A stretch of DNA of 64,000 nucleotides from an uncultured bacterium (lineage in GTDB: Bacteria > Babelota > Babeliae > Babelales > Babelaceae). Made by a program: the position numbers. Shown here in pieces: positions 21,001 to 24,000 of the stretch (positions are counted from its first letter, which is position 1; every line of letters begins with the position of its first letter). The stretch lies in assembly GCA_963713855.1 (NCBI GenBank), contig OY970209.1, positions 960,001-1,024,000 on the forward strand, given 5' to 3'.

Positions 21001-24000
21001 TATATTCTCTTTCTTTTTTATTGTATCTACCATATCAGAAACTTTTTTGTAAGGTCAATCATGGGACTCAACTAAATTCGTTTTTCATGCTACAATGCTC
21101 TTATAGTCCTTCTACAAAGTGTTTTTCTGTATGCTGTTTAAAGATGTTAGTGAAAGTTTTGATTGTATTGCAAAGACGTCATCTCGTCTAGAGATTACTC
21201 AGATTCTTGCAGTACTGTTGCGCAATGCACAACCTTTGGAAGCACGCATTATAAGTTATCTTGCACTGGGGCTTTTGCGTCCGCCCTATCAAAGCACTCA
21301 ATTTGGTATTGCTGCAAAAGGGATGCTTAAGATTTTAGCGACCGTTTTAGAAAAACCTTTAGAAGAGGTAGCAAAGCTTGCCCATGAGCTTGGCGATCTT
21401 GGTCTTGTGGTAGCTGGCGGTTCTTGGCACCACACTCGTGACTTATCAGTTACCGAGGTCTACGACCGACTGGCAGTCATTGAAACCACCACTGGAGCTG
21501 GGTCGCAGGAGGAAAAGTTACAGTTATTAAGCGCCCTTTTAAAAGAGGTAAGTCCAACGTCCGCAAGCCTTATTGTACGAATTATTCTAGGCACATTGCG
21601 ATTAGGTTTTTCCGATATGACGCTCATTGACTCTTTTTCGTGGATGATAGAGGGAGATAAATCTTTAAGAAAGCCTATTGAGCACGCGTATAACGTATGT
21701 GCTGATATTGGACTTATTGCCGAAAGATTACGTGAAGAAGGTAAATCGGCCCTTGGCGAAATCGGCATTGTTGTAGGTATTCCCATCCGACCAGCCTTAG
21801 CAGAGCGCTTACCAAATGCTCAGGCTATTATGGATAAACTGGGACCCAGCGTCGCACAACCAAAGCTGGATGGATTTCGGCTTCAGATACATGCAAAACG
21901 TAAAGAAGATAAGATGTACTTGTCGTTTTTTTCAAGAAACTTAATCGACATGTCCTTCATGTTTCCGGATCTCGTTAAAGCTTTTGAGCAATATCCTCTT
22001 GAATGCTTTATAGTTGAGGGGGAAGCAGTCGTCTATAACCCTTCAACGCAACGCTATCTTCCTTTTCAGGAAACGGTCAAACGAAAGCGCAAGCACGACA
22101 TTGAAACCGCAGTTGAGCACATGCCACTTCGCCTTTTTCTCTTTGATATACTTTACTGTAACGGAGAGTCGATGCTTGATAAACCTCACGAAGTGCGCAG
22201 GCAGACGATTATAAAGCTCTTTGCTCAACCTGATCACCCTGACAACGTGGCTGTTATTGAAGAACATGTTGTTGCTAGCACGAATGAGCTTTTAGACTAC
22301 TTTAATAGTAACGTTAAAGCTGGTTATGAAGGCATTATTGTAAAAAGACCTGATGCTGTATATCAGCCAGGTAAGCGCAATTTTAACTGGATAAAGCTCA
22401 AAAAAGGCCAAGAAGGCATAGTTGAAGATACGCTCGATACAGTCATTCTCGGATATTATTACGGTCGTGGTAAACGTTCTTCATTTGGTATAGGCGCTTT
22501 TCTTGTTGGTGTGTATAATCCAGAAGGCGACCGCTTTGAAACAATCGCAAAAGTGGGAACCGGACTTAAAGATGCGGACTGGATAGAGCTTAAAAAAAGG
22601 TGTGATGCTTTGGCTGTCAACCAAAAGCCAGCAAACGTTGATTGTGCGCCTGACCTTTATGCTGACATATGGGTAACACCTCAAATTGTCTGTATCGTAA
22701 AAGCTGATGAGATCACCCAGTCTCCGCTTCACACTGCTTCAAAGACTGCCCATGCTCAGGGTCTTGCACTTCGATTCCCACGGTTTATGGGCTATCGCTT
22801 TGATAAATCTGCGCTAGAGGCAACAACGGTGCATGAAGTAAAACGAATGTGGAATGACCAGTTTAGCCGAGGCGGCTAAGACCTTTTTTAAGGCTTCTAT
22901 TAAACATGTACGTAAAAAAAAGAATACTTAAAGCCAAGTAAAAGAGTGTTAATAAAGCTCCTTTAAAAAGCAGATGCATGGGTAGTATGCCCGTAGTCAT
23001 TTGAATACGCATGCTTTCAAAAACGTATGCCATGGGAAAGAACTTAGCAACATTTTGAAGCCAGATGGGCAGCGCTTCAAGAGGGTAAAATACGGTACTG
23101 ATTGGTGCAAAAGACCACACTATTTGCCAAGCTAAAGATTCTAATCGGTGTCCTGCATAAATAATAAAGCCTGCACCCAAAAAACCGGTAGAACAGCCAA
23201 TAAGCGCAAATAGCACCCAGAAACCTGGAAGCGTCCAACCAAGATCAAATGGATTGACCTTAAAAAGGGCAAGCACTAAAAATGTGCTAAAGCTGAATGT
23301 TATCGTAGCTTTGATAAATCCGCTCAGCATAAGAGCGAGTACCCACTCGTATATTTTAATGGGCGAAGCAAAAAGATTAAGGAGGCTGTGGCCCCAAAGC
23401 TCTTCAAGCAAAGAGCTTGTTATTTCGACGCTTGTCCTTAAAATGATTTCCCAAAACACTAGTGCTGTCAAAATGAGACTCTGTGCGGAAGATGGTTGTA
23501 CCCATGTTCCAACAAGCCCCCATATGACAATGTCAATGAAGGGCCAGTAGAAGTTTCTGAAATACGAGTAATGTTACGCCGCTCGGCATAAAGGCTTCGA
23601 ATAAGAATTGCTTTAATCCTATACCAGCTTAATCCAGTTGCAAGCATGCTATTTACTCCTTCCCTTTTTAGCTTGTTTTGTCAGAGAAAGGAAATAATCA
23701 TTGAGTGTTGGCTTTTGTATAGCAATTTCTGAATAATTAACTCCAGCCCGTGCAAGCCCAGTCAGAAGCGATGCAATTTTATTTTCATCCACCGTTATTT
23801 CAAGAAAACGCTCAACCGTTCTATGGGCCAGCTTATGCTCATTAAGGTAGGCTATGGCTTTAGAAAGATCGTCACCTACAACAAGTTGAACGTAGCTAGT
23901 TGATACTCGGGCAGCGAGTTTTTCTGGCTTATCGCTCGCTATGATTGTTCCTTGTTGTAAAACAAGAACACGATTACAAACATAAGCGACTTCATCCATA

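Follow-up and report, generated by a model that had tools for sequence, protein, structure and literature searches.

A three-domain ATP-dependent DNA ligase as candidate replicative ligase of the Dependentiae, with relatives in the Patescibacteria

The ligase gene and its motifs

The window analysed is a 64,000-nucleotide stretch (contig OY970209.1, positions 960,001 to 1,024,000, forward strand; assembly GCA_963713855.1) of the genome of an uncultured bacterium of the Babelaceae. It carries g00904, a gene for a predicted ATP-dependent DNA ligase (Table 1). The open reading frame runs from 21119 to 22879 on the plus strand, and the ATG at 21131, which gives a protein of 582 residues, is the matching start residue in 30 aligned orthologs.

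Table 1. Features of the ligase locus and the two other ATP ligases of the genome. Plain positions count from the first letter of the window, those prefixed C1 along the contig.
Feature	Position	Strand	Basis
g00904, three-domain ATP-dependent DNA ligase (predicted)	21131..22879	+	582 aa plus stop; ORF, translation
N-terminal DNA-binding domain, residues 3-169	21137..21637	+	PF04675 DNA_ligase_A_N, 104.6 bits
Nucleotidyltransferase (adenylation) domain, residues 221-424	21791..22402	+	PF01068, 161.9 bits; six-frame match at the same place
Predicted AMP-accepting Lys245 codon, motif I	21863..21865	+	K245 invariant in ortholog alignment; role inferred from family
OB-fold domain, residues 453-559	22487..22807	+	PF04679 DNA_ligase_A_C, 78 bits
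Terminator-like hairpin spanning the g00904 stop codon	22862..22880	+	weak: 2 found in the region, shuffle mean 2.4
Small ATP ligase, 350 aa	C1:1336002-1337054		two-domain, intact; TIGR02779 314.5 bits, cut-off 227.75
Small ATP ligase, 299 aa	about C1:520876-521775		two-domain, intact; TIGR02779 249.9 bits, cut-off 227.75

The domains stand in the order DNA-binding, adenylation and OB, as the Lig1/archaeal three-domain type requires, and their boundaries reproduce exactly those for A_N, A_M and A_C in the genome-wide survey's note that drew attention to this gene. With 380.3 bits to TIGR00574 (dnl1; cut-off 217.8), the protein belongs to the Lig1/archaeal three-domain family, and this membership suggests ATP as the cofactor. 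All six catalytic motifs are present and invariant or nearly so across 30 sequences. The adenylation domain holds motifs I (KLDGFR, 245-250), III (EGEA, 296-299), IIIa (LFLFD, 335-339), IV (EGIIVK, 400-405) and V (WIKLK, 420-424); motif VI (LRFPR, 547-551) lies in the OB fold, where R548, F549, P550 and R551 are invariant in the ortholog alignment.

Three other assignments were tried and rejected. As a LigD or NHEJ ligase g00904 scores 137.9 bits to TIGR02779 against a cut-off of 227.75, and the gene for Ku lies next to another ligase, some 458 kb from g00904. As a haloarchaeal ATP ligase (NF041331) it scores 276.9 against 830. Bacterial accessory three-domain ligases, the mycobacterial LigB-type (NF002868) and TIGR04120, have the same three Pfam domains, but the scores are 233 against 641 and 118.4 against 400, respectively. 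Accessory ligases of these kinds coexist with LigA.

Promoter and terminator scans around the gene gave counts not above those of shuffled sequences. A search for sequencing runs that might cover g00904 found no run and no RNA source listed.

Absence of LigA

The genome consists of one contig of 1,521,901 bp (91.22% complete, 3.26% contaminated). PF01653, the model of the LigA adenylation domain, has no match in it at E<=10, although it matched 11 of 14 control genomes, that is, Haloferax and all 10 bacteria, as the survey's note had claimed for the bacterial controls. PF03120 likewise has no match, and TIGR00575 gives only a 13.9-bit match of its HhH part, inside a RecD2-type helicase. Four LigA proteins, one from the Dependentiae bin G069 and the others from Patescibacteria, gave nothing better than E=0.2 when searched against the genome by tblastn, and g00904 itself has no LigA adenylation domain among its Pfam matches. 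The reported absence of LigA is thus confirmed by four kinds of search in a single-contig genome.

The same holds for the phylum. PF01653 is present in 1 of 261 Dependentiae genomes, G069, a count that our repeat of the search bore out. This one LigA is on a giant-virus-like contig in a contaminated bin. Its contig has 27.8% GC, compared with 34.8% for the contig with the bin's own ATP ligase, and at about 12 kb from the match there is a gene for an mRNA-capping enzyme. The bin measures 1.6 Mb, its ten genus-mates 0.8-1.0 Mb, and an NCLDV capsid gene is found on another of its large contigs. Viral contigs gave no pattern match for relatives of the LigA-like protein.

A ligase retained throughout the Dependentiae

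The three-domain ligase occurs in 251 of 261 Dependentiae genomes at E<=1e-5, a count that includes five weak best matches (G025, G080, G185, G189 and G211; E 1.7e-13 to 2.4e-37), which are probably a small paralogue or a fragment only. Among genomes at least 90% complete and at most 5% contaminated, 186 of 189 have it. Identity is 52-65% among the 150 matches listed, beyond which there are 262 more; the beta clamp DnaN, present in 41 of 41 genomes, shows 45-64%. The gene is thus retained like a core gene, and the housekeeping-like conservation ascribed to it stands. It very probably predates the diversification of the known Dependentiae.

Could the missing LigA be an artefact of incomplete assemblies? 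Most of the genomes are bins, and in three high-quality ones (G015, G036, G147) neither LigA nor any other ligase is seen, from which it follows that absences in such assemblies can be false at a rate of about 3 in 189. Yet the genome studied here is one contig, and LigA is missing from 260 of 261 genomes, while DnaN turns up in 41 of 41 and the ATP ligase in 251 of 261. We give this explanation almost no credence.

The Dependentiae also have small LigD-type ligases, two of them in the present genome. Might one of these do, or share, the replicative sealing? Both copies are intact and above the family cut-off, and the ATP ligase proposed as replicative in Prochlorococcus is, according to the preprint, also not of the three-domain type (bioRxiv 10.1101/2020.05.11.089284). 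Only 90 of 261 Dependentiae, however, have a ligase of this type above the cut-off, so the type cannot be the replicative enzyme of the lineage. The surroundings of the 299-residue copy, moreover, are those of a repair gene, with a UmuD-like gene adjoining and Ku at about 2 kb. A replicative part for either small ligase in this genome appears most improbable; the two would be accessory repair enzymes. The three-domain enzyme is left as the only ligase kept lineage-wide (251/261; LigA 1/261, on a viral contig; LigD-type 90/261), and as LigA is absent, it stands as the candidate for the replicative ligase of this organism and of the whole order Babelales, a candidacy first put forward in the survey's note and supported here.

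Relatives in the Patescibacteria

The nearest labelled relatives of g00904 are found neither in archaea nor in hosts. They come from CPR/Patescibacteria, in Microgenomates-type MAGs titled Roizman-, Levy-, Curtiss-, Gottesman- and Beckwithbacteria, which are also without LigA: none of 50 genomes that carry the closest ligase relatives has it. The CPR ligases are 43-48% identical to query A2, and A2 members are 44-45% identical to g00904; Dependentiae and CPR ligases form a single clade with an SH-aLRT support of 98. The label 'archaeal/eukaryote-type', under which the enzyme had been described, holds for the fold family, though the nearest labelled relatives are bacterial. Acquisition from a eukaryotic host is rejected: human LIG1 gives 221 bits where the archaeal enzyme reaches 359, and it is bacteria that carry the closest relatives.

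A complementary pattern is seen in these bacteria. Among 301 sampled Patescibacteria, which are related and hence not independent of each other, 232 have LigA only, 64 have the three-domain ATP ligase (A_N) only, none has both and five have neither; 296 of 301 thus carry one or the other but never the two together. Carriers of the ATP ligase make up about a fifth of the sample. In the class of the Roizmanbacteria MAG G269, the ATP ligase is present in 184 and LigA in 11 of 201 likewise related genomes: 183 have the ATP ligase only, 10 LigA only, one both (a contig-edge fragment) and six neither, and one has a sub-threshold A_N match. The 10 LigA-only genomes may represent one sub-lineage. Each tally counts one unpublished genome (G463 in the 301, G660 in the 201).

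No other evidence at hand speaks as strongly as this either/or pattern for a g00904-type enzyme doing the job of LigA. It also bears on the reading that g00904 is a repair ligase only and that nicks are sealed by a very divergent LigA or by a ligase of unknown type. The absence of LigA comes from homology searches, the present genome is 91.22% complete, and g00904 has no clamp-binding motif by pattern, all of which would suit a hidden LigA. Three LigA models and four LigA proteins nevertheless find nothing in a single-contig genome, and in 232 of 301 Patescibacteria, fast-evolving as these are, PF01653 detects LigA at E of about 1e-80, its misses being the 64 carriers of the ATP ligase and the five genomes with neither. 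An unknown ligase would have to match the either/or pattern exactly. Such a hidden sealing enzyme seems highly improbable.

Proposed role and origin

We regard g00904 as very probably the general nick-sealing ligase of this bacterium, one that would do the work of LigA, including the joining of Okazaki fragments. Going by the family, Lys245 of motif I would take AMP from ATP, the AMP would then move to the 5' phosphate at the nick, and attack by the 3' OH would close the backbone, with the DNA-binding, adenylation and OB domains clamped around the DNA meanwhile. LigA would be the functional equivalent of g00904, from which it differs in cofactor and accessory domains. Being the only ligase kept lineage-wide in Dependentiae and mutually exclusive with LigA in related carriers (the 301 Patescibacteria and the class of 201 genomes), the enzyme is a fitting candidate for the replicative role.

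How did the distribution arise? It seems likely that one clade of three-domain ligases displaced LigA in all known Dependentiae and in nearly the whole of a Microgenomates-type CPR class, on a strictly either/or basis, and that the gene passed between the phyla. The tree, in which an unlabelled sister group (P0017, P0030, P0113) stands near the Dependentiae clade, hints at a transfer from CPR to Dependentiae.

The cause of the switch is a separate question. The survey's note saw in it an adaptation to ATP imported from the eukaryotic host. Three tandem TLC ATP/ADP translocase genes (C1:915360-919525) are in keeping with this, and Babela, according to Pagnier et al., likewise encodes three translocases (PMC4378268). 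But NadD is present (132.3 bits, cut-off 112.45), so NAD is still made, and the TLC model, which matched the present genome, finds none in 24 CPR carriers of the same ligase clade, where the same swap took place. High-light Prochlorococcus, as described in the preprint, is free-living (bioRxiv 10.1101/2020.05.11.089284). The switch is explained equally well if a gene transferred into small genomes displaced LigA by chance. The proposed cause is not supported by these findings, and we consider it unlikely.

Known systems and significance

The best solved structure for g00904 is the replicative ligase of Saccharolobus (S.) solfataricus, 2hiv (359 bits, aligned end to end, residues 1-577 to 21-607 of the chain). 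With this enzyme and with further archaeal Lig proteins (2cfm, 3rr5), g00904 shares the three domains and all the motifs. Unlike 2hiv, it has no counterpart to the opening 20 residues of the chain, where the PCNA-binding motif of the S. solfataricus ligase lies, and its host is a beta-clamp bacterium, with DnaN encoded in the genome. The ortholog alignment shows no N-terminal extension of g00904, and crude patterns found neither a QL[SD]LF-like nor a PIP-like clamp motif, in agreement with the earlier search. The pattern Q..L.[LF] does occur at 307 and at 358, but neither place is read as a clamp motif, since the match at 307 overlaps a near-invariant PFQET stretch.

The core observation, that LigA is replaced by an ATP ligase in this phylum, is already published: Pagnier et al. 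(Biol Direct 2015, PMC4378268) drew it for two TM6 genomes, Babela massiliensis and JCVI TM6SC1. It stands there in a single clause, which neither names the type of ligase nor offers a phylogeny, a tally or a test. To this the present analysis adds 261 genomes, the type of the ligase, its relatives and the complementary pattern. The phylum scale and the CPR link are new; our literature search found no paper on the ligase of the CPR group, nor any on the closest relatives, the either/or pattern or the class of G269.

In high-light Prochlorococcus marinus, an ATP ligase, AD-Lig P, has been proposed as replicative, a functional LigA being missing (bioRxiv 10.1101/2020.05.11.089284). That swap, according to the preprint, concerns one species group and the chromosomal slot of LigA, where truncated LigA genes are left, and the activity was assayed. 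The swap in Dependentiae is phylum-wide and ancient, has neither a LigA remnant nor a common slot, and is read from sequence. The survey's note took Prochlorococcus to be the only exception so far proposed; in the published record the first mention of such an exception dates from 2015, with the Dependentiae, and not from 2020.

If the proposal is true, no other exception to the NAD-dependent replication ligase in bacteria would come near this one in size: it takes in hundreds of species-level lineages, and two unrelated, large, host-dependent radiations are affected. Why do bacteria prefer NAD? The question is described as open in the Prochlorococcus preprint (bioRxiv 10.1101/2020.05.11.089284). 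Two radiations with the ATP enzyme offer many independent genomes in which to ask what permits the swap; small genomes, a missing coupling to the clamp and NAD economy are candidate factors. Ligases of the g00904 type are natural proteins for complementation tests, and LigA-directed inhibitors should find no target in these lineages.

Gene neighbourhood

No replication genes are among the neighbours of g00904. Its own flanks (phosphomannomutase-like and ABC-2 genes) gave no tblastn matches in 109 related ligase loci, with no flanking genes in common. A Fic-family gene adjoins the ligase in 42 of 110 CPR loci examined, against 0 of 30 in Dependentiae. In many Dependentiae the ligase gene is located among those for SecD, a PgsA-like protein, PyrF and PlsY.

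LigA and the ligases of the genome

In the Babelaceae genome, a single contig of 1,521,901 bp rated 91.22% complete, no NAD-dependent DNA ligase (LigA) was found, in agreement with the genome-wide survey's note. The LigA adenylation domain model PF01653 gave 0 matches at E<=10, with 10 of 10 bacterial controls and Haloferax positive, and PF03120 had no match either. The full-length LigA model TIGR00575 found a single 13.9-bit match, to its helix-hairpin-helix part, within a RecD2-type helicase, and tblastn with three Patescibacteria LigA sequences and the one LigA protein detected in a Dependentiae bin (G069) reached E=0.2 at best.

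Which ligases, then, does the genome have? The ATP-ligase adenylation domain PF01068 detects three: g00904 and, at 350 and 299 aa, two shorter ones with two domains each. For g00904, Pfam reproduces the three-domain layout reported by the survey (DNA_ligase_A_N 3-169, DNA_ligase_A_M 221-424, DNA_ligase_A_C 453-559), and the start codon is aligned in 30 orthologs, none of which shows a conserved N-terminal extension. The protein scores 380.3 bits with NCBIfam TIGR00574 (dnl1; cut-off 217.8) and stays under the cut-off of all narrower models, i.e. haloarchaeal LigA, LigB-type, LigD/NHEJ and TIGR04120. It has all six motifs, I (K245-L-D-G-F-R), III, IIIa, IV, V and VI, and these vary little or not at all across 30 aligned sequences. 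Among solved structures the best match is the S. solfataricus ligase 2hiv, whose chain residues 21-607 align with query 1-577 at 359 bits; other archaeal ligases come next, then human LIG1 at 221 bits. A pattern search for a clamp motif found none. The ligase feature is real; its cofactor, activity, essentiality and any replisome coupling are predicted only.

The two shorter proteins both pass the NHEJ-ligase model TIGR02779 (cut-off 227.75). The 299-aa copy is in a repair context: its neighbour is a UmuD-like S24 peptidase (152 bits to a PolV subunit model) that is transcribed divergently, and a Ku gene (138.7 bits) lies ~2 kb away. LigD-type ligases are patchy across the phylum, with matches above the TIGR02779 cut-off in 90 of 261 Dependentiae genomes. 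A 308-aa frame adjoining the 350-aa ligase has no Pfam or NCBIfam match.

Features and their coordinates (plain numbers are window positions; G000:C1 is the contig of the genome itself; L-numbers are loci)
Feature	Position	Strand	Remarks
g00904 open frame	21119..22879	+	ATG at 21131, 582 residues
Three tRNA genes	2003-2075, 15038-15121, 16706-16779		
350-aa LigD-type two-domain ligase	G000:C1:1336002-1337054 (L003:1111-2163)	minus	TIGR02779, 314.5 bits
Repair cluster	G000:C1:520897-524303 (L004, L036)		outside window; 299-aa LigD-type ligase (TIGR02779, 249.9 bits), UmuD-like peptidase, Ku
Three tandem TLC ATP/ADP translocase frames	G000:C1:915360-919525		486, 461 and 447 aa; ~41-45 kb upstream of window
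SecD/CDP-alcohol phosphatidyltransferase/OMP decarboxylase/PlsY block, example loci	L048:598-2304, L021:598-1359, L038:4793-5653, L079:2267-2995		
Fic/DOC-family gene, example	L077:1480-2637	+	82.1 bits; from CPR-type loci L042-L116

Distribution in Dependentiae

All 261 Dependentiae genomes examined come from one order. An ortholog of g00904 was found in 251 of them, with a weak match only in five (G025, G080, G185, G189, G211), and in 186 of the 189 high-quality genomes. Three high-quality genomes (G015, G036, G147) are without LigA, a three-domain ligase or any PF01068 match; this state is presumably an assembly gap and puts the rate of false absence at ~3 in 189. The three are rated 91-96% complete, and G036 has only 4 contigs. 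Ligase identity is 52-65% among the 150 matches listed, and DnaN, present in 41 of 41 sampled genomes, shows 45-64%; conservation is thus in the same range.

PF01653 detects LigA in one genome of the 261, G069, the same count as in the survey. The protein (717 aa, with an N-terminal extension of ~147 aa) is truly homologous to NAD ligases and has adenylation, OB, HhH and BRCT domains; K.DG is not matched in its open frame, which carries KLNG at the expected place of motif I. The contig, C140 (L005, L149; 158,632 bp), has 27.8% GC versus 34.8% on the bin's ATP-ligase contig. A 1546-aa protein that combines mRNA-capping with cap-methyltransferase domains is encoded ~12 kb from the NAD ligase, and LRR and ankyrin proteins are also encoded on C140. 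The bin measures 1.6 Mb, versus 0.8-1.0 Mb in its ten genus-mates, and another of its contigs, C113 (L037, L151; 174,960 bp), carries an NCLDV major capsid gene (58.6 bits; 0 of 14 controls positive). The GC gap, capping protein, oversized bin and capsid gene point to C140 as foreign, and the LigA of G069 is read as lying on a giant-virus contig, in a bin that holds giant-virus-like contigs. Giant viruses are reported to carry NAD ligases (PMC2806865).

Related ligases in other lineages

Among 1.84 billion representative proteins, 1121 matched at E<=1e-30, as entries without names. Eight representatives picked among the non-Dependentiae neighbours (P0007-P0009, P0011-P0013, P0021, P0022; the first five 44-45% identical to g00904) were aligned, and a scan of named species genomes with this alignment gave 80 loci. 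Beside Dependentiae, the titles comprise Roizman-, Levy-, Curtiss-, Gottesman- and Beckwithbacteria, Microgenomates and Patescibacteria MAGs. Many loci are titled 'uncultured Gammaproteobacteria/Pseudomonadota'. These rows group within Dependentiae or CPR clades in the trees, and one of them, L055 (genome G290), was sampled in the class of the Roizmanbacteria MAG G269; such titles are unreliable and look wrong. No LigA was found in the 21 oddly titled genomes searched. About 30 such MAG records (loci L038-L115), plus one titled 'Alteromonas naphthalenivorans', are genomes of 0.7-1.6 Mb.

One tree was built with FastTree from 117 rows (three loci <540 aa left out) and a second with IQ-TREE in quick mode (LG+G4) from 51 chosen rows; they were rooted on representatives resembling the S. 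solfataricus enzyme (P0099, 684.6 bits to 2hiv). In both, the Dependentiae ligases form a single clade (100). This clade lies within a group (98 SH-aLRT) that also takes in clades of CPR ligases and a small number of unlabelled representatives, and one more CPR clade is placed just outside it (94); the trees give no resolution of the order among sub-clades. What can safely be said is that, among labelled sequences, the nearest kin are those of CPR bacteria, not those of archaea or eukaryotes. A transfer from CPR to the Dependentiae ancestor is suggested.

An either-or pattern with LigA

None of 50 genomes carrying the closest ligase relatives has LigA above cut-off. The pattern was followed in 301 genomes sampled evenly from the phylum of G269 (Patescibacteria, CPR) and in 201 from its class, taken from record titles to be the Microgenomates group; the tallies count related, non-independent genomes of unstated completeness, with one unpublished genome in each pair (G463 and G660, respectively). 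In the phylum, LigA is above cut-off in 232 of 301 and the ATP-ligase N-terminal domain PF04675 in 64; by hand comparison of the lists, the two never occur together, and both are missing from five genomes (G314, G364, G402, G432, G542). G551 has the ATP ligase and a sub-threshold LigA match, and in G779, a genome of the class sample, such a match falls within the ATP-ligase frame itself. In the class the proportions are 11 with LigA above cut-off and 184 with PF04675: 183 genomes have the ATP ligase only, 10 LigA only, six neither, one is sub-threshold, and one (G667) has both, its LigA being a fragment of 162 aa where a contig ends.

When a gene occurs exactly where an essential one is lacking, and is lacking where that one occurs, this is the classical hallmark of functional replacement. 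Of the evidence gathered here, the pattern speaks most strongly for the ligase clade doing the work of LigA, and the reading of g00904 as the probable replicative ligase is well supported by such comparative evidence.

Why was the ligase exchanged? The survey's note linked the switch to imported host ATP, and the genome does encode TLC translocases. It also keeps NadD, however; the TLC model, positive on this genome, has 0 matches in 24 CPR-titled ligase carriers; and the Prochlorococcus with the ATP-ligase case is free-living (10.1101/2020.05.11.089284). ATP import is unsupported as a general cause.

Earlier reports

The core claim for Dependentiae is already in print, in Pagnier et al. (2015; PMC4378268). 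The 2020 Prochlorococcus preprint calls its own case the first reported; that priority fails for Dependentiae, and with it the survey's statement, which followed the preprint, that only Prochlorococcus had been proposed. Two other Dependentiae genome papers have no DNA ligase discussion: 'ligase' occurs once, unrelated, in PMC4776705, and once, in the reference list, in PMC6561590. In searches that left most subscription journals outside, the Babela paper was the sole relevant one found for an ATP-dependent DNA ligase in TM6, and none was found for CPR/Patescibacteria/OP11; a complete Microgenomates genome paper lacks the word 'ligase' in its text. Not found published were the tally over the whole phylum, the account given of the single LigA match, the kinship with CPR ligases and the strict either-or pattern.

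Gene neighbourhoods

The ligase of many Dependentiae has a housekeeping neighbourhood: SecD, a CDP-alcohol phosphatidyltransferase, OMP decarboxylase and PlsY, each seen at 19-34 of 110 loci. The locus studied here (L006) has none of these four; g00904 stands alone between two opposite-strand genes, a phosphomannomutase-like gene and an ABC-2 permease. Of the 32 two-kb bins of the window, 29 have a positive GC skew, and cumulative skew climbs steadily from 0.06 to 2.10, so that the window seems to lie within one replichore.

CPR-type loci often have another neighbour. Of 110 loci examined, 42 have a Fic/DOC-family frame next to the ATP ligase, against 0 of 30 Dependentiae loci; among the 40 loci listed, only L063 is Dependentiae-titled. 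Fic is a protein AMPylase, placed here beside a self-adenylylating ligase.
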